Source of the DNA: Wocania sp.
GTDB lineage: Bacteria > Bacteroidota > Bacteroidia > Flavobacteriales > Flavobacteriaceae
Length of the DNA stretch: 64,000 nt
Direction: 5' to 3'
Assembly (NCBI GenBank): GCA_965224845.1
Contig: CBDDAJ010000036.1
Location: 32,724 to 96,723, forward strand
This document shows positions 19,101 through 58,752 of the stretch, piece after piece. A program made the position numbers and the translations under genes. The number at the start of each line of letters is the position of its first letter. The first letter of the stretch is position 1. The notes beneath the pieces are model-generated. The model did no database searches. It saw only the letters and a program-made list of their open reading frames with translations, and was not told where the DNA came from.

Positions 19101-19541
19101 TTATACCTTTTTAATTACATTCGTAACAATACCCCAAATAATAAAATCGTTTTCTTGTGTAATTTTTATAATAGGATAATTGGGGTTTTCAGGCTGCAGC
19201 CACACTTCGTTTTTATCTACTTTTAAACGTTTTACGGTAAATTCTCCATCTAAAAAACAGACTGCTATTTTATTGTTTGCAGGTTCTAAGCTTCTATCTA
19301 TAACTAACAAATCATTATCGTCAAGCCCTGCTCCAATCATAGATTGTCCACTTACCCGTGCAAAAAAAGTGGCTTCTTTATTTTTAACAAGCTCACGGTC
19401 CAGCGATAAGCGTTGTTCTTTAAAATCTTCGGCTGGCGAAGGAAATCCTGCTGAAATTCCGGTATCGAAAAAATGAGCTCCAGAGTTTGTAAAAACTTTA
19501 GGAGTAAAAAAAGTTAATGTGTTCGATTTGTGTAATAGCAT
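19101..19541 (-). CDS. umuD: UmuD-like S24 peptidase (translesion synthesis accessory subunit)
   Basis: 146 aa, no HTH domain. Ser-Lys dyad pattern GQSMIGAGL...VKRLK. Confidence 0.8.
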   Translation of the reverse strand: MLLHKSNTLTFFTPKVFTNSGAHFFDTGISAGFPSPAEDFKEQRLSLDRELVKNKEATFFARVSGQSMIGAGLDDNDLLVIDRSLEPANNKIAVCFLDGEFTVKRLKVDKNEVWLQPENPNYPIIKITQENDFIIWGIVTNVIKKV

Positions 19542-19561
19542 TTGTTTTTATGTTTTTTATT

Positions 19562-19700
19562 AGCCCTTGTGTTTGCGTTAGGGATTGAGACATTCTTCGA
19601 CGACGCTCAGCACAGGTTTATTGATGCTGCCGGCATGGGAGGAAGCCCTTCTCCTTCAGCTACACTCAGCACATACTCTTGTCGAAATATTTATATTCAC
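19562..19700. repeat. GC-rich mosaic intergenic element E1 (contains gcgttagggattga and cttcgacgacgctcagcaca motifs, internal direct repeat ctcagcaca)
   Basis: About 55% GC in an AT-rich genome. Motifs recur at 26487-26590 and 34395-34585. Confidence 0.6.
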
Positions 19701-19786
19701 GAATTCATTAATTTAAAATAAGAATCAATGAGTAAAACCCGACCATTTGTATGGAGCAGAACCGAAGTGTTGTGGTAACCCGAAAA

Positions 19787-21049
19787 TTAACATTTTACTT
19801 TAATAATATCATTAATATTTGTTGTGTATCGTGGCGACAATCGTTCTTGACGCATTTTCCAGGTGCGTTTTAAATCTTGATTGGCTATTTTAATTTTATA
19901 ATCTCCATATTTTGTATTTAACTCATCTATAGCATGCATTAAGTCTTTGTGTTTGGGATTTTCGTATTCAAACATATTTAGCTGAAAATTATCTGTTGGC
20001 ACCAACCCAGACACAATAACACCTGCGCGCTTATACTTAACCCCTTTTTTAAAAACGGAAGTTACAGCTTTTACCGCTTCATTACTAATTACTAACGAAG
20101 AATTCGTTGGAAATGGGATACTAACAATTTTACTTCCTCTATGCTGTTCTATATTTTTTTTATGCCTATCGCTACTTAATAAAACAATAATAACATGACA
20201 ACTGGAGCCTTGTTTACGTAATTTTTCGGCGCAACTTGTTGCAAAAGTAGAAATACGCTCTTTTATGTAGTTTATATCGTCGTAAGTATAATCAAAACTT
20301 CGTGTTGTGGCTATGGCGCGTTTGGTTTTTAGCTCGTCCAATTGCAAAGTGGGAATGCCTTCTAAATCCTTTTTTAATTTCCATTCGGTAATCGAGAAGT
20401 TTTTACGAATCCAATCCTCTGATAACTGTGTAAAATCATAAGCTGTTCTACACTTTTTAAGCTTTAGTCGTCTGGTTAAACCCCGGCCAATGCCCCAAAC
20501 ACTTTCAATTTTAATCCACTTTAAGGCTTTTATTCGCCGCTCTTCAGAATCTATTACATAGACGCCATTTGTTTTCTTCGGGAATTTACGGGCTACTTTA
20601 TTAGCTACTTTACTCAATGCCTTGGTTGGAGCTATACCAACGCAAGTTGGAATTCCTGTCCATTTTAAAACCTGCTTTCTGATGTTATTCCCATAATCGT
20701 GATAATTATAATCGTCTTCAAAATTTTTGAATTCTAAAAACGATTCGTCTATACTGTACAATTCCACATCGGGTGTAAACTGTTTTAAAATAGACATAAC
20801 ACGACTGCTCATATCGCCATACAAAGGGTAATTTGATGATAGCACAGATATTCCATTGGATTTACAAAAGGATTCCCATTTAAAAATAGGAGCTCCCATT
20901 GGTAAACCAATAGTTTTTGCTTCGTCACTTCGTGAGATTACACAACCGTCGTTATTTGAAAGAATAGCAACCGGTTTTCCTTTTAAATTAGGGTTAAAAA
21001 CACGTTCGCAAGAAGCATAGAAATTATTACAATCTACGAGTGCAAACAT
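19787..21049 (-). CDS. umuC: Y-family DNA polymerase V catalytic subunit UmuC
   Basis: MFALVDCNNFYASCERVFNP... is a canonical UmuC/DinB N-terminus. Confidence 0.85.
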   Translation of the reverse strand: MFALVDCNNFYASCERVFNPNLKGKPVAILSNNDGCVISRSDEAKTIGLPMGAPIFKWESFCKSNGISVLSSNYPLYGDMSSRVMSILKQFTPDVELYSIDESFLEFKNFEDDYNYHDYGNNIRKQVLKWTGIPTCVGIAPTKALSKVANKVARKFPKKTNGVYVIDSEERRIKALKWIKIESVWGIGRGLTRRLKLKKCRTAYDFTQLSEDWIRKNFSITEWKLKKDLEGIPTLQLDELKTKRAIATTRSFDYTYDDINYIKERISTFATSCAEKLRKQGSSCHVIIVLLSSDRHKKNIEQHRGSKIVSIPFPTNSSLVISNEAVKAVTSVFKKGVKYKRAGVIVSGLVPTDNFQLNMFEYENPKHKDLMHAIDELNTKYGDYKIKIANQDLKRTWKMRQERLSPRYTTNINDIIKVKC

Positions 21050-23014: not shown

Positions 23015-23031
23015 CTTGCTACATTTGTTTT

Positions 23032-24201
23032 ATGGATCAATTTCCCAAAAAGCTAAAAGAAAAACTTGATACTCGAAAAGCAGCTAATGCGTTACGGCAA
23101 CTTAATGATCAACAAAATTTAGTAGATTTTTCGTCAAACGATTATTTAGGGTTTTCAAAGTCTCAAATAATTTTTGATAATGCACATCAATTTTTAATTA
23201 ACCATAATATAAAACAAAATGGTGCAACGGGCTCGCGTTTGCTTTCGGGAAATCATGCACTTTATAACATCGTAGAGAATATTATATCTGAGTTTCATAA
23301 CAGCGAAGCAGCTATAGTATTTAATTCGGGGTACGATGCAAATGTTGGTTTTTTTAGCTGTATACCTCAGCGTAATGATATTATTTTTTACGACGAATAC
23401 ATACATGCTTCCATACGTGATGGAATTAAACTTTCAAATGCTAAGGCTTATAAGTTTAAACATAACCATTTAGAAGCTTTAGATGAAATGTTGAAACGCG
23501 TTCAACATAAGGGTAATATATATATTGTTACAGAATCTGTATTTTCAATGGATGGAGATATTCCAGATTTAGCTACTATGTGTAACATAAGTAAAAAACA
23601 CAAGGCCTATTTAGTTGTTGATGAAGCACATGCCATTGGTGTTTTTGGGGAGCGCGGCGTTGGTTTAGTTCAAAAACTAAACTTAGAAAAAGACCTTTTT
23701 GCACGCTTAGTTACTTACGGAAAAGCTATGGGTGCCCATGGTGCCGCCATTCTTGGCAGCCAAACGCTAAAGCAATACCTTATTAATTTTTCTCGTAGCT
23801 TTATTTATACTACGGCATTACCTCCACACAGTTTAGCAACAATTCAAGCGGTATATAACGAACTTGTTATTTCTAATCCAAACAAAACATCGCATCCTAA
23901 TATTTATAAGCTGCATCAAAACATTCAATGTTTTAAGACAGAAATTGTAAAGCAAAATCTTCAAAACCACTTTATTAAAAGTAATTCTGCTATACAATGT
24001 TGTATCCTTTCAGGAAACCAAAAAGTAAAACAGATTGCAAAAAAGCTTCAGGAGCATCATTTTAATATAAAGCCCATTTTATCGCCTACCGTTACAAAAG
24101 GAGAAGAACGTTTGCGTTTTTGTTTACATAGCTATAATTCAGAAAAAGAAATTGTAGAAGTTTTACAGCTGTTAACTACTTTTGTAACAAAGTTATACTA
24201 A
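23032..24201 (+). CDS. bioF: 8-amino-7-oxononanoate synthase
   Basis: Class-II aminotransferase-like PLP enzyme. Context with bioD and bioA. Confidence 0.8.
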   Translation: MDQFPKKLKEKLDTRKAANALRQLNDQQNLVDFSSNDYLGFSKSQIIFDNAHQFLINHNIKQNGATGSRLLSGNHALYNIVENIISEFHNSEAAIVFNSGYDANVGFFSCIPQRNDIIFYDEYIHASIRDGIKLSNAKAYKFKHNHLEALDEMLKRVQHKGNIYIVTESVFSMDGDIPDLATMCNISKKHKAYLVVDEAHAIGVFGERGVGLVQKLNLEKDLFARLVTYGKAMGAHGAAILGSQTLKQYLINFSRSFIYTTALPPHSLATIQAVYNELVISNPNKTSHPNIYKLHQNIQCFKTEIVKQNLQNHFIKSNSAIQCCILSGNQKVKQIAKKLQEHHFNIKPILSPTVTKGEERLRFCLHSYNSEKEIVEVLQLLTTFVTKLY

Positions 24202-24238
24202 ACGCGTTTGGGTATCTCATTAAATTTACAATTTTATC

Positions 24239-24616
24239 ATGATAGATCATTATACCATATTAGCAACGTTTCCTTACTCAACAGAAGCTCAGGTAACAAA
24301 AGCTAAACTAGAAGCAGAAGGCCTTCGCGTTATGTTATTGGATGAAAAAACTGTAGATTCCGATCCATTAATTAGTCAAGCTATTGGCGGTGTAAAACTA
24401 TTAGTTCATAATGATAATGTAAAAGAAGCTATAAAAATTTATAACCAGATAAGGTATTATGAAAAAGACAAGAATGGAAAAGAAGTGGTTTGTATAAATT
24501 GTGGTTCGACAAAAATATTGATTGCAGAACCGTCCAGAAAAAATATTTTTTATATGCTCTTCCCTTTTTTTGAAAAAACAAAATACCGCTGTAACGTTTG
24601 TAATACCACTTTTTAA
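24239..24616 (+). CDS. Small DUF2007-like (PII-fold) protein with C-terminal zinc-ribbon (CINCGS...CNVC)
   Basis: 125 aa. Embedded between bioF and bioD; stop overlaps the bioD start. Confidence 0.4.
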   Translation: MIDHYTILATFPYSTEAQVTKAKLEAEGLRVMLLDEKTVDSDPLISQAIGGVKLLVHNDNVKEAIKIYNQIRYYEKDKNGKEVVCINCGSTKILIAEPSRKNIFYMLFPFFEKTKYRCNVCNTTF

Positions 24617-25224
24617 TGAAAACATATTTTATAACAGGAATTTCAACCGAAGTTGGTAAAACAATAGCATCAGCTATAGTAACAGAAGCATTAGAGGCCG
24701 ACTATTGGAAACCCGTACAAGCTGGAGAGCTAGATAATTGTGATACGATAAAAGTAAAAAAGCTGATATCGAACTCTAAATCAAAGTTTCACCCAAACAC
24801 TTATGCTTTGCATACACCTATGAGTCCGCATGCAGCAGCCGAAATTGATAAGGTATCTATAGGTATTAAAAAAATTATACCTCCAAAAACAAGCAACCAT
24901 TTAGTTATAGAAGGCGCTGGCGGATTATTAGTGCCTTTAAACAATACAAACACTATTTTCGATTTAATTAAACCAGATTATAAGGTTATTGTTGTATCCA
25001 GACATTATTTAGGAAGTATTAACCATACCCTTTTAACAGTAAACGCATTAAAAGCGAAAGGCTTTAATGTCTCAATTATTTTTAGTGGAACCGAGCACAA
25101 ATCAACCGAAAGTATTATCAAAAAAATGACTCAAGTTCCCGTTATAGGGAGAATTGACGAAGAGCCTTATTTTGATAAAAATGTAATCAAAGAATATGCA
25201 GAATTGTTTAAAGAAAATTTATGA
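24616..25224 (+). CDS. bioD: Dethiobiotin synthetase
   Basis: P-loop ITGISTEVGKT. CobQ/CobB/MinD/ParA-type fold. About 200 aa. Confidence 0.85.
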   Translation: MKTYFITGISTEVGKTIASAIVTEALEADYWKPVQAGELDNCDTIKVKKLISNSKSKFHPNTYALHTPMSPHAAAEIDKVSIGIKKIIPPKTSNHLVIEGAGGLLVPLNNTNTIFDLIKPDYKVIVVSRHYLGSINHTLLTVNALKAKGFNVSIIFSGTEHKSTESIIKKMTQVPVIGRIDEEPYFDKNVIKEYAELFKENL

Positions 25225-26486
25225 CCCTACAAGAACGCGATAAAAAACACCTTTGGCATCCGTTAAAGCAACACCAAACCCAACCCAACAGTTTAGCCAT
25301 AACTAAAGCAAAAGGATGTATTCTAACCGATGAAAATGGCAACGAATATATTGATGCTATTGCCTCCTGGTACACCTGCATGTATGGACATTGCAATGCT
25401 TATATCACGAGTCGAGTTTATAAGCAAATGCAGCAATTGGATCAGGTTATGTTTAGTGATTTTACACACGAACCAGCAATAAGGTTATCGGAAGAACTCA
25501 TAAAAATACTTCCTGAAAATCAAAATAAAATTTATTTTAACGATAATGGCTCTACGGCTGTTGAAGCTGGCATTAAAATGGCGCTTCAGTATTACTATAA
25601 CAAAGGCGAAAAACGCTCAACTTTTATTGCCTTTGAAAACGGATTCCATGGCGATACCTTTGGTGCCATGAGTGTATCAGGATTATCAGTATACAATGGC
25701 CCTTTCGAAGATTTTTTAATAGATGTTAAACGTATACAAACCCCAAATGGGTTAAATACTGATGCTATTATAAATCAGCTAAAAGACTTTGCTTTAAACC
25801 ATGATATTGCCGGCTTTATATACGAACCTTTAATACAAGGTGCTGCCGGTATGAAAACCCATGATGCAAATGGGTTAAACAATATTTTAAAATTTTGTAA
25901 AGACAATAATATACTTACCATTGCTGATGAAGTTATGACTGGTTTTGGAAAAACAGGCCGTTATTTTGCTTCAGATTATCTTGATACTAAACCCGATATA
26001 ATCTGCCTGAGTAAAGCCTTAACTGCAGGATTGCTTCCTATGGCAATTACCTCTTGTTCCCAGGATATTTACAATGCATTTTTAAGTAACGATATAGCCA
26101 AAGGGTTTTTCCATTGCCACACTTATTCTGCAAACCCCGTAGCCTGTGCTGCCGCTATTGCTGGTATTGAGCTTTTAACATCTCAAGACATTCAAGATAG
26201 CATCAAAAATATAATGCGCGCCCATAGTACATTCCAAAAACGCATTCAAAATCATCCAAAAATAAAATCTACAAGACATTTAGGTGTTATTTTTGCGCTG
26301 GACCTCAATACAAAAATGGAACGTTATGGCGATTTGCGCGATAAACTTTTAAAATTCTTTATGGATAGAGGGGTTTTCCTAAGGCCACTTGGTAATACTA
26401 TTTATATACAGGTTCCTTATGTAATTTCAGATATTGAATTACAGAAAGTTTATCAAAGCCTTGAAGACGTATTAGAAATTATTTAG
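25221..26486 (+). CDS. bioA: Adenosylmethionine-8-amino-7-oxononanoate aminotransferase
   Basis: Class-III aminotransferase pattern (…ADEVMTGFGKTG…) with catalytic Lys. Start overlaps the bioD stop. Confidence 0.85.
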   Translation: MTLQERDKKHLWHPLKQHQTQPNSLAITKAKGCILTDENGNEYIDAIASWYTCMYGHCNAYITSRVYKQMQQLDQVMFSDFTHEPAIRLSEELIKILPENQNKIYFNDNGSTAVEAGIKMALQYYYNKGEKRSTFIAFENGFHGDTFGAMSVSGLSVYNGPFEDFLIDVKRIQTPNGLNTDAIINQLKDFALNHDIAGFIYEPLIQGAAGMKTHDANGLNNILKFCKDNNILTIADEVMTGFGKTGRYFASDYLDTKPDIICLSKALTAGLLPMAITSCSQDIYNAFLSNDIAKGFFHCHTYSANPVACAAAIAGIELLTSQDIQDSIKNIMRAHSTFQKRIQNHPKIKSTRHLGVIFALDLNTKMERYGDLRDKLLKFFMDRGVFLRPLGNTIYIQVPYVISDIELQKVYQSLEDVLEII

Positions 26487-26590
26487 GGCTTAGTACCCCT
26501 TTCGGCTTACTTCGACTTCGCTCAGCATTTGTGCTAAAGATTAGGGCTTATAATTTACCCTGAACGAAGTAGAAGCGCTATAGCTTTTTT
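26487..26590. repeat. GC-rich mosaic intergenic element E2 (cttcgacttcgctcagcat motif; long imperfect hairpin) directly after the bioA stop
   Basis: Shares 20/22 nt with E1 (cttcgac[g/t][a/t]cgctcagca). gcttacttcg / cgaagtagaagc arms form a stem. Confidence 0.55.
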
Positions 26591-26613
26591 AATTTTTTTG
26601 AAAATTAAAAAGG

Positions 26614-27837
26614 TTGCCTCTTCTATCCCTAACACATAAGTCTTACTTTTGTCAAAATAAAAAAATGTTGCAAAACCCTATTTCCATTACAGCACTTTCA
26701 TCCATTTCTCCATTGGGAAAATCCTTAAATGAAGCATGGAATAGCTATCAAAACAATCGACATCATATTTCAGAAAAAACATTTGAAAATGGCAAAGCTT
26801 TGGTAGCTCAAATTTCTGCAGAAGCAAAACAAGACATTAAAGCTTTAAGACTTTCTGACAATAAATACAAAACATTAGATCATACCGTTTTATATGCTAT
26901 TTACGCTTCTCGACAGGCAATAAAACATGCTAATTGGAAAGGGACTGATAATTTTGGAATAAATATTGGTTCTTCTCGTGGTGCTACTCAACTCTTTGAA
27001 AATTATCACAAAGATTTTCTAAAAAACAATAAAGCAAAAACTTTAAGTTCCCCAACCACGACATTAGGTAATATTTCCTCTTGGGTAGCACACGACTTGC
27101 AAACTCAGGGACCAGAAATAAGTCATTCAATAACCTGTTCAACAGCGCTACATGCTATGCTAAACGGGGTAGCCTGGATAAACTCTGGGATGTGCAGTAA
27201 GTTTTTAGTTGGTGGCAGCGAAGCTCCTTTAACATCATTTACTATAGCACAAATGCAGGCCTTAAAAATTTATGCTAATCAAAATAGCGCCTTTCCCTGT
27301 CGAGCATTAGATCTATCTAAAAAACAAAATAGTATGGTTTTAGGTGAAGGTGCATCAATGATTTGCTTAGAAGCAGGTAAAACAAGTAATGCCTTAGCCA
27401 CTATAAAAGGGGTTGGCTATGCTACAGAGGTTTTAGAACATAATATCTCCATTTCAGCAGATGCTAAATGCTTTCAAAAATCGATGCGAATGGCTCTAGG
27501 GAATCTAAATCCTGGCGACATAGATATTATAGTAATGCATGCCCCAGGAACCGTAAAAGGGGACCTTTCAGAACACAAAGCTATTGAAACCGTTTTTAAA
27601 AGCAATGTTCCTGCATTAACAAGCAACAAATGGAAAATAGGACACACCTTTGGAGCATCAGGAGCTTTAAATATTGAGCTGGCAGTTTTAATGTTACAAC
27701 ATCAGCAATTTATAGGGTTACCCTATATAAAAAATAAAAGCGCACCTAAAAAAATAAAAAACATCCTTGTAAATGCTGTTGGTTTTGGGGGCAATGCTGT
27801 AAGTATTTTGGTTTCAAAAAATTCTATCAATGAATAA
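26614..27837 (+). CDS. Beta-ketoacyl-ACP synthase I/II-like (Cys-His-His) enzyme inside the biotin cluster
   Basis: Active-site region ITCSTALHAM. His motifs VMHAPGT and KIGHTFGASG. 407 aa. Confidence 0.7.
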   Translation: MPLLSLTHKSYFCQNKKMLQNPISITALSSISPLGKSLNEAWNSYQNNRHHISEKTFENGKALVAQISAEAKQDIKALRLSDNKYKTLDHTVLYAIYASRQAIKHANWKGTDNFGINIGSSRGATQLFENYHKDFLKNNKAKTLSSPTTTLGNISSWVAHDLQTQGPEISHSITCSTALHAMLNGVAWINSGMCSKFLVGGSEAPLTSFTIAQMQALKIYANQNSAFPCRALDLSKKQNSMVLGEGASMICLEAGKTSNALATIKGVGYATEVLEHNISISADAKCFQKSMRMALGNLNPGDIDIIVMHAPGTVKGDLSEHKAIETVFKSNVPALTSNKWKIGHTFGASGALNIELAVLMLQHQQFIGLPYIKNKSAPKKIKNILVNAVGFGGNAVSILVSKNSINE

Positions 27838-28240
27838 AATTAACATAGTTACTCTCTTTTTTTCTATTCTGTTTTTGGGATTTTCATGTCAAAATCAAAA
27901 CAATAAGCAAGCTACTCCTTTGGCAAGCTTTAACGGGGTTTGGGAAGATGTTAATACTGATGACTTTAAGAATTGCTACGCTATATATTCTGAAGTTGGA
28001 GATAGTATACATATCGCCCACTATATCGAATTTAAAGGACAGCCTTTTTTTGAAACGGGCTCAGGAATAATTAAAGGCGATTCTATTATTTATCATGTAA
28101 ATGTTATAAAACCTATTCCGGCTTGGGGTCCAGACGGTGGTACACATTATTTAAAACTAAGTGAAGATAAAAATACACTAAAAGGAATTTTTATTACAGA
28201 TGGAGGTCATAAAGGCCCTTTGGTTTTTAAAAGAAAATAA
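27830..28240 (+). CDS. Hypothetical lipoprotein
   Basis: Lipobox LGFSC. 136 aa. No recognisable domain. Confidence 0.4.
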   Translation: MNKINIVTLFFSILFLGFSCQNQNNKQATPLASFNGVWEDVNTDDFKNCYAIYSEVGDSIHIAHYIEFKGQPFFETGSGIIKGDSIIYHVNVIKPIPAWGPDGGTHYLKLSEDKNTLKGIFITDGGHKGPLVFKRK

Positions 28241-33239: not shown

Positions 33240-34355
33240 TTGTCAAAAATATATCTCCAAATGAGCGAAACAAGACACAACTGGACCAAAGAAGAAATAT
33301 TAGATATATATAACAAACCTTTAATGGAGTTGCTTTATGAAGCAGCTACTATTCATAGAGAGCAGCATGACCCAAATGTTGTACAGGTAAGTACATTACT
33401 ATCTGTTAAAACTGGGGGCTGTTCAGAAGACTGTGGCTATTGTCCGCAAGCTGCGCGTTACCATACTAATATAGAAGGAAACGATCTTATGAGTGTTCAG
33501 CAGGTAAAAGCACAAGCTCTTAGAGCTAAAGAAGGTGGAAGCTCACGTGTATGTATGGGTGCTGCATGGCGTAATGTAAAGGATGGCGAAGAGTTTGATC
33601 AGGTTTTGGAAATGGTACGTACCATTAATAAGCTAGATATGGAAGTATGCTGTACTTTAGGAATGCTTACCGAAAACCAGGCAAAACGACTGGCAGAAGC
33701 AGGGCTATATGCTTACAATCATAATTTAGATTCGTCAGAAGAATACTATAAAGAAGTAATTTCTACGCGTGGATATCAAGATCGTTTAGATACTATAGAA
33801 AACGTACGTAAAACCAATGTTACGGTTTGTAGTGGTGGTATTATTGGAATGGGTGAAAATTTAGAAGATCGTGCTGGGATGTTAGTTGCCTTATCCACTT
33901 TAAATCCACAACCAGAATCAACCCCCATAAATGCTTTAGTAGCTGTTGAAGGCACGCCATTGGAAGATCAAAAACCTGTTTCTATTTGGGATATGATACG
34001 TATGGTAGCTACGACAAGAATCGTTATGCCAGAAACACAAGTACGCTTAAGTGCCGGTAGAACACAAATGACTCGCGAAGGACAAGCTTTATGTTTCTTT
34101 GCAGGGGCAAATTCTATTTTTGCTGGTGATAAACTTTTAACAACACCCAATCCTGATGTAAATGAAGACATGAAAATGTTTGAATTGTTAGGAATGAAAC
34201 CTCAAAAGCCGTTTACCAAAAAAGTGCAGCCACAAACAGTTGAAGCCAAAGACTCTCAATACGAAGCATTAGGGGAAAAACCAAGATGGACCCGCCCCGA
34301 GCATACTATTGAGCGTAATGAAGCTGCGAAAGAAAAAGGGAAATTGGTTAAGTAA
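33240..34355 (+). CDS. bioB: Biotin synthase (radical SAM) with about 50-aa C-terminal extension
   Basis: CSEDCGYCPQ radical-SAM cluster motif. Conserved BioB core. Confidence 0.9.
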   Translation: MSKIYLQMSETRHNWTKEEILDIYNKPLMELLYEAATIHREQHDPNVVQVSTLLSVKTGGCSEDCGYCPQAARYHTNIEGNDLMSVQQVKAQALRAKEGGSSRVCMGAAWRNVKDGEEFDQVLEMVRTINKLDMEVCCTLGMLTENQAKRLAEAGLYAYNHNLDSSEEYYKEVISTRGYQDRLDTIENVRKTNVTVCSGGIIGMGENLEDRAGMLVALSTLNPQPESTPINALVAVEGTPLEDQKPVSIWDMIRMVATTRIVMPETQVRLSAGRTQMTREGQALCFFAGANSIFAGDKLLTTPNPDVNEDMKMFELLGMKPQKPFTKKVQPQTVEAKDSQYEALGEKPRWTRPEHTIERNEAAKEKGKLVK

Positions 34356-34635: not shown

Positions 34636-35505
34636 TTGGCACTAAATCTACAAGCTGTTCCTCGGGTAAAAACCATAACAAAAGAGGCCTTTATAAAACA
34701 TTACTTTAAACCACAAAAACCTGTGGTTATAGAACGCTATATTGATGATTGGCCCGCTTATACAAAATGGAATTTAGACTACATGAAAGCCGTTGCAGGC
34801 TCTAAAATGGTACCGCTTTACGACAACAGGCATGTTGATTATAAGGATGGGTTTAATGAGCCACATGCTAAAATGAAAATGAGTGAGTATGTCGATTTAT
34901 TAAAACGAGAACCCACAAAATATAGAATTTTTCTTTGGAACATTTTAAAAGAAATACCTCAATTACAAAACGATTTTAGCTATCCAGATTTTGGACTGAA
35001 ACTCATGAAAGGATTACCTATGCTGTTTTTTGGAGGACGAGATTCTTACACTTTTATGCATTACGATATTGACTTGGCAAACATTTTTCATTTTCATTTT
35101 GAAGGTAAAAAGCAGATTACTTTGTTTGATCAAAAGCAAAATGATTATTTATACAAAATTCCGCATTCTTTAATTACCAGAGAAGATATAGATTTTAATA
35201 ATCCTGATTTTGAAAAATGGCCTATGTTACAAAAAGCGAAAGGCTATAAAACTGAGCTAAATCATGGCGAAATACTATATATGCCAGAAGGTTATTGGCA
35301 TTATATGCGTTATGTAACCCCTGGGTTTTCTATGAGTTTACGTGCTATTGCCAGAAACCCCAAAAACCTTAGTAAAGCTATTTATAACCTTTTAATTATG
35401 CGGAACTATGATAATATGATGCGTCGCATAAAAGGACAAAAATGGATAGACTGGAAAAACGAGCAAGCCATTATAAAAACCCATAAAAAAAACGGTATTA
35501 CCTAA
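34636..35505 (+). CDS. Cupin-like/JmjC-domain protein
   Basis: 289 aa. Cupin_8-like pattern with HxD...H candidate metal ligands. Confidence 0.5.
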   Translation: MALNLQAVPRVKTITKEAFIKHYFKPQKPVVIERYIDDWPAYTKWNLDYMKAVAGSKMVPLYDNRHVDYKDGFNEPHAKMKMSEYVDLLKREPTKYRIFLWNILKEIPQLQNDFSYPDFGLKLMKGLPMLFFGGRDSYTFMHYDIDLANIFHFHFEGKKQITLFDQKQNDYLYKIPHSLITREDIDFNNPDFEKWPMLQKAKGYKTELNHGEILYMPEGYWHYMRYVTPGFSMSLRAIARNPKNLSKAIYNLLIMRNYDNMMRRIKGQKWIDWKNEQAIIKTHKKNGIT

Positions 35506-51802: not shown

Positions 51803-52180
51803 ATGGAAAGATATACTAAGACATCTTCATCAAAATTTCAAAATAGATATAGTGAAGAGTTCAAACAATTTTTATGTAATGAATTTCTAACGGGAACTGC
51901 AACTAGAAAATCAATCGAAAAGAAGTATAATATAGGTAATAACCAATTGACTGTTTGGTTAAAGAAATTAGGATATGACTATTCAAAACCCAGTATTGTA
52001 CCTTTGCCCTCAATGGCAAATCAACCGGACAAATTATCAAATAAAGAAAAAAACTCTTTATCTCAATTAGAGAAGGAACTTGTAGAAGCTCGATTATTAG
52101 CTGAAACTTATAGGAAAATGATTGAAATTGCAGAGAATGAATTTAAAATAAAGATTGTAAAAAAGTCCAATACCAAGTAA
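51803..52180 (+). CDS. IS3-family transposase OrfA (HTH)
   Basis: 125 aa. HTH plus leucine-zipper-like C-terminus. Slippery AAAAAAG near the 3-prime end. Confidence 0.9.
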   Translation: MERYTKTSSSKFQNRYSEEFKQFLCNEFLTGTATRKSIEKKYNIGNNQLTVWLKKLGYDYSKPSIVPLPSMANQPDKLSNKEKNSLSQLEKELVEARLLAETYRKMIEIAENEFKIKIVKKSNTK

Positions 52181-52188
52181 TCCAAGAG

Positions 52189-53100
52189 ATGAAAAACCTA
52201 TATCCAAAGGTAAGCTTAGGCAGGTTCTGCCGATTACTTGGTGTTACCCGTCAAGCATATTATCAACATTTTTGGTATCGTGAACAATTATCTTTTGAAG
52301 AAGATTTAATTGTGTCCGAAGTACATAAGATTAGAAAAAATCATCGCCATATGGGAGGCAGAAAACTATATGAACTATTACAACCATTTTTATTAGCACA
52401 TCAAATAAAAATGGGAAGAGATCGGCTATTCGATATTTTATCAGCTAATTATCTTTTGGTTAGACGTAAAAAGAAACAAACAATAACTACAAATTCTTTC
52501 CATAGGTTTAAGAAATATTCAAACCTGATTAAGAAGTTTATTCCTGATAAACCAAATCAATTATGGGTAAGTGATATCACATATTGGAAAATCGAAACTG
52601 GTTTTGTTTATATTAGTTTTATAACAGATGCTTATTCTAGAAAAATTGTCGGTTATCATTTAGCTGATAGTTTAATGACCTCAGAGACAATCAAAGCATT
52701 ACAGATGGCAATATTCAATCTACCAGAAGGCTTAATAGATAAGTCTAAATTGATACATCATTCAGATAGAGGAACTCAGTATTGTAGTAACGAATATGTA
52801 AAATTGTTGCAAACCAATAACATTGAAATTAGTATGGCTGAAAACGGTGACCCGCTAGAAAATGCAATTGCAGAACGGGTTAATGGAATTATTAAGGAAG
52901 AATATCTCAACGATTATCAATTAGAGAATATAAAAACAGCTAAAGAATTACTTGATACTGTTGTTAATCTATATAATAATGAAAGACCACATATGAGCAT
53001 AGGTAATCTTACTCCTAATCAAGTACATCAAAACAATATAAAAATCGAAAAACTATGGAAAAATTATTATCTAAAAAGCCCTATTATTGTAAACCGATAA
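52189..53100 (+). CDS. IS3-family transposase OrfB (DDE/rve integrase core; expressed as OrfAB by -1 frameshift)
   Basis: Candidate DDE residues in WVSDITY, HSDRGTQY and the ...ENAIAERVNG region. Confidence 0.9.
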   Translation: MKNLYPKVSLGRFCRLLGVTRQAYYQHFWYREQLSFEEDLIVSEVHKIRKNHRHMGGRKLYELLQPFLLAHQIKMGRDRLFDILSANYLLVRRKKKQTITTNSFHRFKKYSNLIKKFIPDKPNQLWVSDITYWKIETGFVYISFITDAYSRKIVGYHLADSLMTSETIKALQMAIFNLPEGLIDKSKLIHHSDRGTQYCSNEYVKLLQTNNIEISMAENGDPLENAIAERVNGIIKEEYLNDYQLENIKTAKELLDTVVNLYNNERPHMSIGNLTPNQVHQNNIKIEKLWKNYYLKSPIIVNR

Positions 53101-53249: not shown

Positions 53250-53762
53250 CTAATAGTTAATTAATTTAGAGGTCATATAACTTACTAAAGCTTTATCTAA
53301 GGGGTTTGGTTTTACAATTAAAGACAAACATGTTTCTCCATACTTCGAACCATTTGAATCTCTCATTACAAAATAAAACATATTTCCTTTAGCTTCTTCA
53401 TAACCTTCTTTAAAGTAGTCTGATTCAAAACCTATAAAATCACTATGGTAATTGCTTTTGTCAAAAGATTTTAAGAGAATCTTGTTTGGTTTTTTTATTT
53501 TGTTAGAAGAAACAATATTGATTTCATCTCCTTTTAATTCAACAATTATTTCATTTACATCACTCTCCTTTTTAGATATCAACAAATAAAATGTATTAGA
53601 TATTGAAAATAGCAAGTAAGGTGTATCTGTATCCTTAATCACCTTTTTAGATATTAAACTTGCCTTATTCCTACTTTCAAGTTCGTATTTATTTAATTTT
53701 TGTGCAGAACAAGAATTGCAAACAACTAAAAAAGCCAGAATAAGAATTTTTGAATACTTCAT
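53250..53762 (-). CDS. Secreted 170-aa protein (candidate orphan immunity protein)
   Basis: Signal peptide with Cys (LAFLVVCNSCSA). Sits between two junction modules in the Rhs island. Confidence 0.4.
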   Translation of the reverse strand: MKYSKILILAFLVVCNSCSAQKLNKYELESRNKASLISKKVIKDTDTPYLLFSISNTFYLLISKKESDVNEIIVELKGDEINIVSSNKIKKPNKILLKSFDKSNYHSDFIGFESDYFKEGYEEAKGNMFYFVMRDSNGSKYGETCLSLIVKPNPLDKALVSYMTSKLINY

Positions 53763-53785
53763 AATTTTAATTTCTAATTAATGGC

Positions 53786-53909
53786 GCATCGTAAATGTAA
53801 GAAATATTATAACTATATGAAATACAAAAGCTACTCTAGTTTTTAGAATAGCTTTTGTTTATTTTGCCTACTCATAACGGCACCCGACACAGTCGAGCGC
53901 TAGCAGGTG
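53786..53909. repeat. Junction module copy c, uninterrupted (rhs-derived segment + hairpin + ttattttgcctaCTCataac + box GGCACCCGACACAGTCGAGCGCTAGCAGG)
   Basis: Shows the unoccupied IS target: ...ctactc|ataacggcaccc.... Confidence 0.8.
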
Positions 53910-54158
53910 AAACATAAGATTATTAAACAATAAGTGTTTAAAACTCTTTCTATAAACTCAATAAATAATCATTGAAGTTTCTTAATTTAGTGTGGAATTA
54001 ATACAATGGAATAATGGCAAAACAAAAAAACTCAAATAGTAATTCAAATAGCAATTCTGGAAATAAAAATTCTAGTACTGGTTCTTCTACCTATAACTCC
54101 AATATCACTCGTACAGGGGCAGAATCAACTAAAGGTTCTGGTAGCGGTAATAGACCAT

Positions 54159-54659
54159 CTAAAACAGATAAAAATTAAACACTGTTAGTAAAACTAAACC
54201 TAAAAACATTAGTGATATAGAGACATAATTTAGTCTCTTCGTCCAAGTGTTTAAGTCTTGTATTTTATTATCTATGTTTTTGTGTTGACAGTCGTCTATT
54301 TTTTCTCCTTCCATTTTTTCTAACTCCTCTAAAATATATTTCTCTTCATTATTATTTGCACTATATCCAGTCATTTGAGAGATAAAATTTGATGCAATAG
54401 CTATTAAAAATGAAAGACCAGAGAATAGTAATAAATTAGGTTGGTCGATAGAAATATCTCCTGTTTTAAATTCTCTTAAGGTTTCAAAAATAATATATAA
54501 TCCAGCTCCACATATTGAAATAATTAACAAGTCCATTCTTCTTGTAGAATAGTTAGTTCTATCTCTTGTGTTTGTTAGATATTCTTTCCACTTATTATAC
54601 TTAAGTTCTTTCTTCCCTTTCATAGTATCTAAGATAGTAATTAAATTACTAAAATTCAT
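54159..54659 (-). CDS. Hypothetical 166-aa protein with two predicted TM segments (island cargo; possible immunity-type protein)
   Basis: ORF track; hydrophobic segments. No enzymatic motifs. Confidence 0.4.
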   Translation of the reverse strand: MNFSNLITILDTMKGKKELKYNKWKEYLTNTRDRTNYSTRRMDLLIISICGAGLYIIFETLREFKTGDISIDQPNLLLFSGLSFLIAIASNFISQMTGYSANNNEEKYILEELEKMEGEKIDDCQHKNIDNKIQDLNTWTKRLNYVSISLMFLGLVLLTVFNFYLF

Positions 54660-54754
54660 ACATAATACTCACTCTAACTTTTCAACACTTGAAAAACTAT
54701 TTTACTATTTCGAATAAAAAAATATAAAATCAACAATCAAATTCATCGACTATA

Positions 54755-54903
54755 CAAAAACAAAAAACGAGCGCACATATTGTACACTCGTTTCTTTTCT
54801 TAGTTTAAATATTATACAGTTTATTATTTACTTACTTTATTTCATTACCATATCATTTTATGGTGTGTGTGGATATGGAATGGATTATTTATGCGTTTGG
54901 GTT
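54755..54903. repeat. Conserved about 150-bp 3-prime cassette tail A (about 90% identical to 58256-58415), containing a bidirectional terminator aacgagcgcacatattgtacactcgtt
   Basis: Read directly; aligned by eye to copy B. Confidence 0.75.
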
Positions 54904-54905
54904 CT

Positions 54906-55241
54906 CTATTTACATTTCTCTATTCCTAAAATCTTATATAAATTTCTTTTCGAAATAAATACTTCTTTGTTTTTAACAAACAAATCTTCATCAATATAGA
55001 AAACAAGAGTGTCTTCTTCTTTGATAGCCTTTATGCTATAAGTAGTATTATATTTTAAATAAACATCATTGAGTTTAGAGTTTTTAATCGCTCTCTCAAA
55101 TTGATTAATTGTCTTTTCATCATCAATTCTTTTTTGAAAAGTATCACACCCATAAATTTCAAGTGCTATAAATTCATTTTTAATATAATTATTACAATTA
55201 GAAAATAGAAATACAATTAGTAATGTTAAATATAGTCTCAT
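54906..55241 (-). CDS. Putative immunity lipoprotein (111 aa) for the orphan Rhs toxin tip
   Basis: Lipobox LFSNC. Immediately (1 nt) downstream of the orphan rhs-CT ORF. Confidence 0.5.
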   Translation of the reverse strand: MRLYLTLLIVFLFSNCNNYIKNEFIALEIYGCDTFQKRIDDEKTINQFERAIKNSKLNDVYLKYNTTYSIKAIKEEDTLVFYIDEDLFVKNKEVFISKRNLYKILGIEKCK

Positions 55242-56369
55242 TTAATCCATTTTTATTTTATCAAACCACGTCAAGCTTTTTGTTTTTTCATCGTGTACTT
55301 TTTGTGCGCTCTTATTAACTTTTTCGCCAGGGTCTACTATTACAGTTGAGCCTTTAATTCTTCCCAAATCTCTAAAGAGTTTTGTTTGCGTTCTAACAGT
55401 TTTTTTTCTGTCTTTATAATCAATAACAGATTCTTTACCAAAGCTATCAAGTTTTTTAGGAAAAGCTCTCATGCAAAAATCTGAACAATTGTTATCAATA
55501 AAATTATAAAATTCTGTTCCTTCTTTTTGTTCTAGTAACTTTTTAGCTTTTTCATCATATTTACCAGATGTTTTTATTTGAATAGCTCCGTCAAATGATG
55601 AAATACCCTTTATAGAATTATTCTTTATATCTTCCAATGTTACTCCCTCTTGAATGCCTACATCTCCTTTTACTGTTTTGTTAAAAGATTTTAATGAAAT
55701 TCTATTATCACGTCCACCTGCTGGTGAAAAATCGTATAGAGTATATGTTCCATCTTCAATATAATTACCATCTTTATCCTCTAAATAGTTTCCTTCATCA
55801 TCTTTTTTGTAATTTGAAACCGCTAAAGCCGCATGTCCAACATCTTCTCTTCCTTCTCCTGGCAACCAAATAATCAAAATAACATCATTACCATCTGGGT
55901 CAATGACATTAATTGGATTGTTAATGGCATAATTGTATGGAGATTTATCAAAATGATTTTCAGATAATAAATCTAAATTCATCCACCTGCCCAAAGCAGC
56001 ATCATAATTCCTAGCAGTTACATCATACCAGCCTAATCCTAACTCATCCTGATACTCCTTACCACCAAACTTATACTTAAGCGCTGGACTCGTAGAATTA
56101 ACCACCGTATTATACCCTTTATGTTTAAGTCCAAAGGGATAGTAGTTGTTTTCTTCCAGGATTTCAGAAGTTGTTATAACACCATTATTGTTATTATCCT
56201 TATAACTCAACCTTATATTCCCTAAATGGTCTTTATATTGATATACATAGCTATAACTGCTCCCATTAACATCTACATAGCCTTCCGGGTGGGAATACTG
56301 TATATTCCTTAAAATACCACTATTAAAACGCCCCTTTTCACCCCATACTTTAAAATAAAAAGAAGCCAT
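55242..56369 (-). CDS. Orphan Rhs C-terminal cassette: end of RHS core plus distinct about 200-aa toxin domain
   Basis: Region HPEGYVDVNGSSYSYVYQYKDHLGNIRLSYKDNNNNGVITTSEILEENNYYPFGLKHKGYN is near-identical to the main RHS protein, followed by ARNYDAALGRW...NNPINVIDPDGN and a unique C-terminus. Confidence 0.75.
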   Translation of the reverse strand: MASFYFKVWGEKGRFNSGILRNIQYSHPEGYVDVNGSSYSYVYQYKDHLGNIRLSYKDNNNNGVITTSEILEENNYYPFGLKHKGYNTVVNSTSPALKYKFGGKEYQDELGLGWYDVTARNYDAALGRWMNLDLLSENHFDKSPYNYAINNPINVIDPDGNDVILIIWLPGEGREDVGHAALAVSNYKKDDEGNYLEDKDGNYIEDGTYTLYDFSPAGGRDNRISLKSFNKTVKGDVGIQEGVTLEDIKNNSIKGISSFDGAIQIKTSGKYDEKAKKLLEQKEGTEFYNFIDNNCSDFCMRAFPKKLDSFGKESVIDYKDRKKTVRTQTKLFRDLGRIKGSTVIVDPGEKVNKSAQKVHDEKTKSLTWFDKIKMD

Positions 56370-56734: not shown

Positions 56735-57112
56735 ATGGAAAGATATACTAAGACATCTTCATCAAAATTTCAAAATAGATATAGTGAAGAGTTCAAACAA
56801 TTTTTATGTAATGAATTTCTAACGGGAACTGCAACTAGAAAATCAATCGAAAAGAAGTATAATATAGGTAATAACCAATTGACTGTTTGGTTAAAGAAAT
56901 TAGGATATGACTATTCAAAACCCAGTATTGTACCTTTGCCCTCAATGGCAAATCAACCGGACAAATTATCAAATAAAGAAAAAAACTCTTTATCTCAATT
57001 AGAGAAGGAACTTGTAGAAGCTCGATTATTAGCTGAAACTTATAGGAAAATGATTGAAATTGCAGAGAATGAATTTAAAATAAAGATTGTAAAAAAGTCC
57101 AATACCAAGTAA
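56735..57112 (+). CDS. IS3-family transposase OrfA (copy 2)
   Basis: Protein identical to 51803..52180. Confidence 0.9.
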   Translation: MERYTKTSSSKFQNRYSEEFKQFLCNEFLTGTATRKSIEKKYNIGNNQLTVWLKKLGYDYSKPSIVPLPSMANQPDKLSNKEKNSLSQLEKELVEARLLAETYRKMIEIAENEFKIKIVKKSNTK

Positions 57113-57120
57113 TCCAAGAG

Positions 57121-58032
57121 ATGAAAAACCTATATCCAAAGGTAAGCTTAGGCAGGTTCTGCCGATTACTTGGTGTTACCCGTCAAGCATATTATCAACA
57201 TTTTTGGTATCGTGAACAATTATCTTTTGAAGAAGATTTAATTGTGTCCGAAGTACATAAGATTAGAAAAAATCATCGCCATATGGGAGGCAGAAAACTA
57301 TATGAACTATTACAACCATTTTTATTAGCACATCAAATAAAAATGGGAAGAGATCGGCTATTCGATATTTTATCAGCTAATTATCTTTTGGTTAGACGTA
57401 AAAAGAAACAAACAATAACTACAAATTCTTTCCATAGGTTTAAGAAATATTCAAACCTGATTAAGAAGTTTATTCCTGATAAACCAAATCAATTATGGGT
57501 AAGTGATATCACATATTGGAAAATCGAAACTGGTTTTGTTTATATTAGTTTTATAACAGATGCTTATTCTAGAAAAATTGTCGGTTATCATTTAGCTGAT
57601 AGTTTAATGACCTCAGAGACAATCAAAGCATTACAGATGGCAATATTCAATCTACCAGAAGGCTTAATAGATAAGTCTAAATTGATACATCATTCAGATA
57701 GAGGAACTCAGTATTGTAGTAACGAATATGTAAAATTGTTGCAAACCAATAACATTGAAATTAGTATGGCTGAAAACGGTGACCCGCTAGAAAATGCAAT
57801 TGCAGAACGGGTTAATGGAATTATTAAGGAAGAATATCTCAACGATTATCAATTAGAGAATATAAAAACAGCTAAAGAATTACTTGATACTGTTGTTAAT
57901 CTATATAATAATGAAAGACCACATATGAGCATAGGTAATCTTACTCCTAATCAAGTACATCAAAACAATATAAAAATCGAAAAACTATGGAAAAATTATT
58001 ATCTAAAAAGCCCTATTATTGTAAACCGATAA
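57121..58032 (+). CDS. IS3-family transposase OrfB (copy 2)
   Basis: Protein identical to 52189..53100. Confidence 0.9.
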   Translation: MKNLYPKVSLGRFCRLLGVTRQAYYQHFWYREQLSFEEDLIVSEVHKIRKNHRHMGGRKLYELLQPFLLAHQIKMGRDRLFDILSANYLLVRRKKKQTITTNSFHRFKKYSNLIKKFIPDKPNQLWVSDITYWKIETGFVYISFITDAYSRKIVGYHLADSLMTSETIKALQMAIFNLPEGLIDKSKLIHHSDRGTQYCSNEYVKLLQTNNIEISMAENGDPLENAIAERVNGIIKEEYLNDYQLENIKTAKELLDTVVNLYNNERPHMSIGNLTPNQVHQNNIKIEKLWKNYYLKSPIIVNR

Positions 58033-58434: not shown

Positions 58435-58752
58435 CTATTTTGTATGACCAAACCTTATAACTTTACAGTCTGATTTTTGAATCTCAATAAATGGAACACC
58501 ACCAACATCGTAATTTAAAGTCCCTTCTACTAACCATACTTTGTCATCTTCTATTGACCTAGCCTTTAAAGGTAAGCTTTCATCGATTCTTTCTCCATAA
58601 ACTGAATAAAGAAGGGTACTTGCAACTTTAAGAGCGACTTGTTCATCATCAACAATACCTTTTTTTTCATTATTAGAGTTTCCTGCTTGAAATGATAAAC
58701 ACAGAATTGTCAAAATAAATACAACACTTAAAATCTTTAGATTAAATTTCAT
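58435..58752 (-). CDS. Putative immunity lipoprotein (105 aa) for the main Rhs toxin
   Basis: Lipobox (LTILCLSFQAG). 11 nt downstream of the RHS stop. Confidence 0.5.
   Translation of the reverse strand: MKFNLKILSVVFILTILCLSFQAGNSNNEKKGIVDDEQVALKVASTLLYSVYGERIDESLPLKARSIEDDKVWLVEGTLNYDVGGVPFIEIQKSDCKVIRFGHTK

Follow-up and report, generated by a model that had tools for sequence, protein, structure and literature searches.

Bacteria differ in how they make the pimeloyl precursor of biotin, and this stage of the pathway has brought repeated surprises. Methylation by BioC has been rationalised by the hydrophobic active sites of fatty acid synthesis, which would not tolerate a free carboxyl group (PMC7645780). 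BioZ condenses glutaryl-coenzyme A (CoA) with malonyl-acyl carrier protein (ACP), and its primer is supplied by CaiB and lysine catabolism. In BioZ, three residues at the tunnel end (S84, R147, and S287) neutralise the glutaryl carboxylate (PMC8024396). In Desulfovibrio, a bio operon was predicted by Rodionov et al. in 2004 (PMC545781). This extended operon (DVU2558-DVU2565) encodes a FabF-like protein (DVU2563), an ACP (DVU2562), a FabG-like protein (DVU2561), and a FabZ-like protein (DVU2560/DORF42491), and is complemented by the nitroreductase-like DVU1220. [quoted passage not shown] Desulfovibrio is without bioC and bioH, and less hydrophobic active sites were suggested by the authors (PMC10102598, PMC545781). 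In the Weeksellaceae, a sister family of the Flavobacteriaceae, BioE was assigned in 2025 to a "fourth pathway" (PMC12704756, PMC12915131). Here, we describe a beta-ketoacyl-ACP synthase (KAS) of the KAS I/II type, encoded in the biotin cluster of a 64-kb stretch of flavobacterial DNA (contig CBDDAJ010000036.1 of Wocania sp.; the whole stretch is called the window). We propose, with a probability of about one half, that this enzyme would work in a methyl-ester-free, BioZ-like way to build the carbon chain of the pimeloyl thioester on which BioF acts.

Flavobacteriia are predicted, and suggested by transcript data, to be primary biotin producers of the ocean, and about 69% of them carry all four late genes (PMC9561691). 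Full-text literature searches returned no description of a KAS I/II gene within the biotin clusters of flavobacteria, and no paper in the literature searched assigned an early-stage biotin enzyme to Flavobacteriia.

The biotin cluster and its ketosynthase

The window has a GC content of 33% and derives from a Gaetbulibacter-like flavobacterium of the family Flavobacteriaceae. Gaetbulibacter sp. 4G1 has a syntenic locus, and its KAS protein is 89% identical to that of the window. An earlier note, made from the sequence alone, had read the cluster as bioF, a small gene, bioD, bioA, a repeat, and a ketosynthase gene, with bioB about 5 kb away. This order and these identities were retained on the basis of NCBIfam and Pfam matches for bioF, bioD, bioA, and the KAS gene. 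The small gene encodes a protein of 125 amino acids, a spacer of 178 nucleotides separates bioA from the KAS gene, and bioB was found 5.4 kb downstream of the KAS gene, with unrelated genes filling the interval. The principal features are as follows.

23032..24201, plus strand: bioF (8-amino-7-oxononanoate synthase; uses the pimeloyl thioester); TIGR00858, E = 2.4e-101; Pfam Aminotran_1_2
24616..25224, plus strand: bioD (dethiobiotin synthase); TIGR00347, 111.9 bits against a cutoff of 83.3; Pfam AAA_26
25221..26486, plus strand: bioA (aminotransferase of KAPA, 7-keto-8-aminopelargonic acid); TIGR00508, 526.7 bits against a cutoff of 405
26665..27837, plus strand: biotin-cluster KAS I/II-type ketosynthase, 390 amino acids; Pfam ketoacyl-synt and Ketoacyl-synt_C
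27136-27138, 27538-27540, and 27643-27645, plus strand: KAS catalytic residues Cys158, His292, and His327, joined by Lys322 and Phe374; from alignment
26977-26979, 27058-27063, and 27250-27252, plus strand: KAS pocket residues Arg105, Thr132/Thr133, and Gln196; from alignment
33240..34355, plus strand: bioB (biotin synthase); Radical_SAM and BATS domains

The bioF product scored 339 bits against TIGR00858, under the cutoff of 426, and its identity was assigned because of the match to the BioF/Kbl family together with the gene context. A TTG at 26614 could open the open reading frame (ORF) of the KAS, which ends at 27837; the homologues, however, all start where the ATG at 26665 lies.

Residue equivalences were taken from alignments with E. 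coli FabF and FabB, made with both MAFFT and HMMER. Cys158, His292, and His327 of the KAS correspond to C163, H303, and H340 of FabF, Lys322 and Phe374 correspond to K335 and F400, and the GFGG loop of FabF is kept. The protein does not have the KAS III architecture with a Cys-His-Asn triad (the BioZ type), and its Cys-His-His triad and ketoacyl-synt domains bear out the earlier view of a Cys-His-His enzyme of the KAS I/II rather than the KAS III type. The AlphaFold2 (AF2) model (mean predicted local distance difference test score (pLDDT) 87.7; predicted template modelling (TM) score 0.91) has the FabF fold, with TM scores of 0.85-0.88 at 20-26% sequence identity.

The KAS is set apart from the housekeeping enzymes with which it shares this fold. 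It scored 161.7 and 153.9 bits against the FabF models TIGR03150 and NF005589 (cutoffs 493.75 and 387), and 99.2 bits against the FabB model NF005935 (cutoff 630; 22% identity). No curated NCBIfam cutoff was reached, and all were missed by a wide margin. Members of the family are 37-81% identical to the window KAS, and 20-27% identical to E. coli FabF, whereas FabF and FabB are 38% identical to one another; FabFs with structures in the PDB scored no higher than 103 bits (HMMER) and were about 24% identical to the KAS. When 1.84 billion cluster representatives were searched exhaustively with HMMER, 443 matched at E<=1e-30, and the best 150 all scored at least 245 bits. Database names for the family are generic only, such as [quoted passage not shown]. 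By these sequence comparisons, the KAS belongs to a distinct clade and is neither a FabF nor a FabB orthologue.

The acyl pocket differs from that of FabF at its gate. In FabF, a back gate made up of Ile108 and Phe202 lies level with about C7-C8 of the bound chain; elongation by the I108F variant is essentially C6-to-C8 only (PMC9006962). Bulky residues at the 108 position disfavour C6-to-C8 extension. This hydrophobic gate is not present in the KAS, in which both alignments place Arg105 at Ile108 and Met197 corresponds to Phe202. The arginine is brought to the gate position by an invariant Ser-Ser-Arg-Gly-Ala-Thr motif. Gln196 corresponds to Glu200 of FabB, and Thr132/Thr133 to Thr137/Ile138 of FabF; given the structures of FabB and FabF, these two threonines presumably line the pocket. 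Arg105, Gln196, and the catalytic residues were found to be invariant in 124 members, and again in a set of 80 sequences (about 200 in total) that comprised the window KAS and 79 metagenome members, 22 of which do not adjoin bio genes. Thr132/Thr133 are 92-99% conserved across the members. An invariant arginine that is flanked by hydroxyl and amide groups, about as deep as a C5 carboxylate would reach, looks like a convergent, BioZ-like solution on the FabF scaffold.

Genomic linkage and proposed role

One genome per GTDB species was scanned, and 80 KAS loci were obtained, all of them from Flavobacteriaceae, in genera that include Flavobacterium, Tenacibaculum, Cellulophaga, Zobellia, Maribacter, Arenibacter, and Flagellimonas. 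In 76 of the 80 species, bioA lies upstream of the KAS gene, on the same strand and within about 2.6 kb; bioD is present in 75/80 and bioF in 74/80 loci. The gap between bioA and the KAS gene is 30 nucleotides or less in 26 of these 76 loci, and 200 nucleotides or less in 54. Where a same-strand bioB was found (48 flavobacterial loci), it starts within 200 nucleotides of the KAS stop codon in 18.

The linkage extends to distant relatives. Members that share no more than 37-47% identity with the KAS of the window are encoded in tight bioB-bioF-bioD-bioA-KAS operons (loci L085, L087, L091, L097, L116, L141, and L174), in which successive genes overlap or almost touch, with a 4-nucleotide overlap in L085 and a 1-nucleotide gap in L091, a metagenome-assembled genome (MAG) of the Kryptoniota. 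On two short contigs (L004 and L089), the 3′ end of bioA lies directly upstream of the KAS gene. Among the metagenome loci that are informative on both flanks, bioA and/or bioB adjoins the KAS gene in 33/56, and bioB lies directly downstream of the KAS gene in 32 metagenome loci. A low-GC marine lineage (L104-L149, GC 31-38%) carries an adjoining KAS-bioB pair in at least 25 loci, and bioF, bioD, and bioA are all missing from the 8 kb around it. Such a pairing would be odd for "bioB-only" salvagers of dethiobiotin, and suggests either that these organisms encode the remaining bio genes at another place or that the KAS does something more. The genes around the clusters turn over while bioA-KAS or KAS-bioB persists. 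Insertions within the 80 clusters are mutually unrelated and, by sequence reading, include a glycosyltransferase-like membrane protein, a GIY-YIG protein, a sigma-factor module, and a SET-domain-like protein. The bioA-KAS arrangement is not a matter of chance, as different genera and even phyla show it again and again.

Two database labels were set aside in this survey. The contig of the MAG labelled "Porticoccaceae" (L092) is syntenic with the window and evidently flavobacterial, and the label "Acidiferrales" of L090 is doubtful because its downstream cytochrome operon is shared with the Kryptoniota locus L091.

These distributions bear on the idea that the KAS is an ordinary FabF paralogue of fatty acid or secondary metabolism, held beside the bio genes by inherited synteny, with pimeloyl coming from a BioE encoded elsewhere, from uptake, or from an undiscovered enzyme. 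All 80 genome loci come from a single family, in which synteny can last without function, 23 of the 56 divergent members are not beside bio genes, and a BioE has been reported in some Flavobacteriaceae. However, the linkage recurs with other gene orders, and with overlapping or abutting codons, in the lineages 37-47% identical, including another phylum, and it outlasts the flanking genes. Around the 23 members that are not beside bio genes, no lipid or polyketide context recurs; their neighbours are heterogeneous (hemL-like, Tex-like, TonB receptor, QueD-like, and kynurenine genes, by sequence reading), and such members keep Arg105 and Gln196. Given also the failure of the KAS at the FabF and FabB family cutoffs, we consider an ordinary paralogue very improbable.

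Among the loci away from bio genes, L099-L102 have the KAS gene adjoining opposite-strand genes that read as kynurenine-pathway-like (kynureninase-, kynurenine monooxygenase-, and cyclase-like). Kynurenine breakdown can lead on to 2-oxoadipate and glutaryl-CoA, but the usual task of the pathway in Bacteroidota is the synthesis of nicotinamide adenine dinucleotide.

Other routes to the pimeloyl moiety were sought in the window and around the KAS genes. A Pfam scan of every ORF of at least 100 amino acids across the window revealed no S-adenosylmethionine (SAM)-dependent methyltransferase, alpha/beta hydrolase, BioC, BioH, BioG, P450/BioI, BioW, KAS III/BioZ, or CoA-transferase/CaiB, which agrees with the earlier observation that the window holds neither a BioC methyltransferase nor a methyl-ester esterase. 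Nor did the scan give a ferritin-like match or a MocR regulator. None of the same ORFs has the two ExxH motifs, 70-140 residues apart, of a BioE-like protein, and no frame of the window contains an ACP-like DSL motif. No BioC/BioH-like gene was found within 8-10 kb of the KAS gene in 172 loci, and no methyltransferase or esterase is conserved inside the 80 Flavobacteriaceae clusters. A tblastn search of 2.67 Mb of loci with BioC and BioH, for which only the E. coli proteins were used and no positive control was run, returned one marginal hydrolase match (L037).

The KAS might instead be a helper in a BioC-type pathway, whose methyltransferase and esterase would be encoded elsewhere, and accept the malonyl- or glutaryl-ACP methyl esters that the host FabH and FabF do not. 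The searches covered KAS neighbourhoods rather than the rest of each genome, and bioH-type esterases are often unlinked from bio operons. The Arg, Gln, and Thr side chains could hydrogen-bond an ester carbonyl, and glutaryl-ACP methyl ester, about C7 in length, would reach the back gate. However, no bioC lies in or near about 170 clusters, whereas relatives that use BioC keep bioC in the cluster (for example, bioADC of the Balneolaceae). A strictly invariant, cationic arginine is better explained by an anionic ligand, and the five-gene bioBFDA-KAS operons look self-sufficient, in the manner of bioBFDAZ. A helper role of this kind is therefore judged quite unlikely.

Taken overall, the sequence and context data indicate that the KAS is probably a condensing enzyme of the biotin pathway. 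The earlier suggestion, that a dedicated KAS I/II-type enzyme supplies the pimeloyl moiety by a non-BioC route, draws support from the distinctness of the clade, the linkage to bio genes, the polar pocket, and the lack of a nearby BioC or BioH in about 170 loci. We give marginally better than even odds to a broader proposal: that a stand-alone enzyme of KAS I/II fold with an arginine at the Ile108 gate is the pimeloyl-ACP synthase of the Flavobacteriaceae, and of several other lineages of the Fibrobacterota-Chlorobiota-Bacteroidota (FCB) group, where it would replace BioC, BioH, and BioZ by using free-carboxylate primers on the housekeeping ACP.

In the proposed mechanism, Cys158 would be acylated by a short acyl chain whose omega-carboxylate is free. 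The most likely such chain is glutaryl, donated by glutaryl-CoA or glutaryl-ACP. Arg105, aided by Gln196 and Thr132/Thr133, would neutralise the omega-carboxylate, and would also close the pocket, so that longer chains are kept out and synthesis stops at C7. His292, His327, Lys322, and Phe374 would then drive decarboxylative Claisen condensation with malonyl-ACP to give 3-oxopimeloyl-ACP, which the housekeeping FabG, FabZ, and FabI would convert to pimeloyl-ACP, to be passed to BioF. Since the charge would be handled inside the KAS, neither methylation by BioC nor a BioH-type esterase would be needed. By analogy, the KAS would be a functional counterpart of BioZ on a FabF/FabB scaffold. Of these steps, the choice of primer is the one held with least certainty.

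A malonyl primer was also considered. The same KAS might be used twice, first joining malonyl-ACP to malonyl-ACP to form 3-oxoglutaryl-ACP and then, after reduction, extending glutaryl-ACP to 3-oxopimeloyl-ACP, again with the housekeeping ACP and reductive enzymes. An external source of glutarate would not be needed, in keeping with a KAS gene that often stands alone, without a linked primer-supplying enzyme, and the polar pocket would suit any omega-carboxyacyl chain. Malonyl priming has been proposed for the DVU2563 system (PMC10102598), and was part of a 1963 proposal (cited in PMC7645780). However, the flavobacterial and Kryptoniota clusters are without the dedicated ACP, FabG-like, and FabZ-like genes of the DVU2563 type; housekeeping enzymes would thus have to reduce 3-oxoglutaryl-ACP, with a carboxylate near the reaction centre, which is the very problem that BioC is thought to solve. 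Furthermore, a gate at about C7-C8 depth appears to be better placed for a C5 than for a C3 carboxylate. Malonyl priming is thus considered unlikely.

Several points weigh against a glutaryl-primed, methyl-ester-free KAS. Enzymes of the KAS I/II type normally take acyl-ACP primers, and glutaryl-ACP is without a known source. No CaiB or glutarate-activating gene was linked to the KAS gene in the loci examined, with the single exception of L089. The BioC/BioH search covers neighbourhoods only; bioC and an esterase, or bioE, may lie elsewhere in the genome, and BioE has been reported in some Flavobacteriaceae (PMC12704756, PMC12915131). The pocket itself is also a matter of alignment: the placement of Arg105 follows from the comparison with FabF rather than from measured geometry, the AF2 model is weakest at residues 101-140, the region of Arg105, and the pocket-lining role of Thr132/Thr133 is presumed. 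Finally, the divergent metagenome members that lie away from bio genes make up about 40% of those examined, and the KAS genes of L086 and L088 are likewise not beside bio genes.

The gene linked in L089 (1684-3651) starts 4 nucleotides past the KAS gene and encodes an acyl-CoA synthetase of 655 amino acids with ACAS_N and AMP-binding domains. It was seen once, and is a candidate primer-activating enzyme.

If the proposed role of the KAS is correct, a further widespread methyl-ester-free route to biotin would operate in major marine biotin producers, and a gap would be closed in predictions of vitamin auxotrophy for a major marine and soil clade. It would also represent a second, independent adaptation of a condensing enzyme to a charged substrate, achieved with an arginine at the chain-length gate of FabF, and would offer a compact one-gene module for engineering the production of pimelate or biotin. 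Marine Flavobacteria would gain a testable candidate for the missing step of the pathway.

Accessory features and neighbouring genes

Four further features lie within or next to the cluster.

24239..24616, plus strand: small DUF2007-like protein (PII/ACT-like fold) with a C-terminal 4-Cys ribbon, 125 amino acids; from a weak Pfam DUF2007 match, orthologues, and an AF2 model
26510..26575, no strand: GC-richer imperfect palindrome in the bioA-KAS spacer; 16-nucleotide arms at 26510-26525 and 26560-26575, 88% complementary, 34 nucleotides apart
26644..26651, plus strand: TACTTTTG, possible Bacteroidota -7 promoter box of the KAS gene (weak); consensus match, 13 nucleotides before the ATG at 26665
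27830..28240, plus strand: predicted lipoprotein, 136 amino acids; 8-nucleotide overlap with the KAS stop codon; called from a reading of the N-terminal sequence

The small protein had been described in the earlier note as a PII-fold/zinc-ribbon protein. Four of its cysteines (C85, C88, C118, and C121) are invariant. The AF2 model (pLDDT 78.6) consists of a beta-alpha-beta/beta-alpha unit followed by a ribbon, and its best Foldseek matches (2hfv, PII-like PstA/GlnK, and ACT domains) are weak. The window copy matches Pfam DUF2007 (PF09413) with E=0.018 and 15.6 bits, under the gathering score of 25.7; the modelled fold is compatible with this family, and many of its orthologues (64-89% identical) are annotated with PF09413 or carry the NCBI name DUF2007. 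The gene was detected between bioF and bioD in 39/80 Flavobacteriaceae loci, and none was found in the operons of L085, L087, and L091. Since these non-flavobacterial operons do without it, the KAS does not depend on the small protein as a partner; the protein is an accessory of the Flavobacteriaceae-type clusters and lies outside the core proposal.

The spacer between bioA and the KAS gene (26487-26664) contains the GC-rich repeat noted earlier, now recognised as an imperfect inverted repeat with a core of 44% GC. A related motif occurs at 19595 in the window, and the palindrome is probably a small dispersed repeat. It was also considered as a canonical terminator, and this was rejected, as the scan gave no terminator-like site. 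The scan for intrinsic terminators and sigma-70 promoters from bioA to the KAS gene revealed nothing meaningful, with counts at the level of shuffled sequence and with a consensus that is not of the Bacteroidota type. The sigma-70 consensus differs from the promoter type of the Bacteroidota, for which we take TAnnTTTG to be the -7 consensus. Besides the box in the spacer, a TAnnTTTG box (a weak motif match) precedes bioF at 23020-23027.

The gene for the 136-residue lipoprotein has no Pfam match and occurs in close relatives only (1/80 Flavobacteriaceae loci); it is lineage-specific, and a link to biotin is unlikely. Downstream of bioB, a Cupin_8 (JmjC-like) gene (34636-35505, plus strand) has a counterpart in 37/80 Flavobacteriaceae loci, in which it is typically the next gene detected after bioB, usually with recX beyond. 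A Flavo-1 RNA motif (RF01705; 34420-34564, plus strand; 43.3 bits against a gathering score of 42) lies between bioB and the Cupin_8 gene. The motif was considered as a bioB-linked element and dropped: seven syntenic loci are without it, so that its place beside bioB is not conserved.

Upstream of the bio cluster, the minus strand carries a umuD-like (Peptidase_S24) and umuC-like (IMS/DUF4113) pair at 19101-21049, with a DUF2975 gene. In relatives, a small helix-turn-helix gene stands beside the DUF2975 gene, and the umuD/umuC arrangement is kept in close relatives and in L092. Towards the end of the window, two copies of an IS3-family-like insertion sequence (a 125-amino-acid orfA and a 303-amino-acid rve integrase; 51803-53100 and 56735-58032), with identical Pfam scores, flank ORFs without Pfam matches (53250-56369); since they bracket about 3.6 kb, they may form a composite transposon. 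Beyond these lie, on the minus strand, a polymorphic-toxin gene with Rhs, DUF6443, and DUF4329 domains (58764-62354), an RHS-repeat ORF (62361-63980), and, downstream of the toxin gene, an immunity gene of the NTF2 fold (58435-58752).

Comparison with known systems

The closest precedent for the flavobacterial KAS, not named in the earlier note, is the Desulfovibrio DVU2563 system, in which an enzyme of the KAS I/II type is likewise encoded within a bio operon and a methyl-ester-free route has been proposed. The likeness to DVU2563 is drawn from its description, not from its sequence. The two systems differ in that the KAS was found here by itself, since neither the window nor the related loci examined encode an ACP, a reductase, or a dehydratase dedicated to it, and in that the hosts are mainly aerobic Flavobacteriaceae, together with Kryptoniota.

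BioE-BioL of the Weeksellaceae supplies pimeloyl in Flavobacteriales without BioC and BioH, and is encoded beside bioF, bioD, and bioA (PMC12704756, PMC12915131). Its chemistry is unrelated: a ferritin-like diiron oxygenase, marked by two ExxH motifs about 100 residues apart, acts by oxidative C7-C8 cleavage of long acyl chains, and a MocR-type regulator accompanies it. The window has neither a ferritin-like ORF nor a MocR regulator. FabF and FabB share with the KAS the fold, the catalytic residues, and the GFGG loop; the KAS differs from them by its 20-27% identity, the Arg105/Met197 gate, Gln196, Thr132/Thr133, and the context of bio genes.

In alpha-proteobacteria, the order of the biotin genes is bioBFDAZ. 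The KAS gene of the bioB-F-D-A-KAS operons occupies the position that bioZ, a FabH homologue within the cluster, holds in the alpha-proteobacterial bio clusters (PMC7645780). In both cases, a single extra condensing enzyme of the bio operon would bypass BioC and BioH (PMC7645780, PMC8024396). The scaffolds are different, as BioZ is a KAS III/FabH-like enzyme with a Cys-His-Asn triad and ACP_syn_III domains, whereas the KAS has a Cys-His-His triad, ketoacyl-synt domains, and the FabF fold. The pocket of BioZ (S84/R147/S287) and that predicted for the KAS (R105/T132/T133/Q196) both combine an arginine with hydroxyl residues, and in both systems the remaining steps would be left to the enzymes of fatty acid synthesis.

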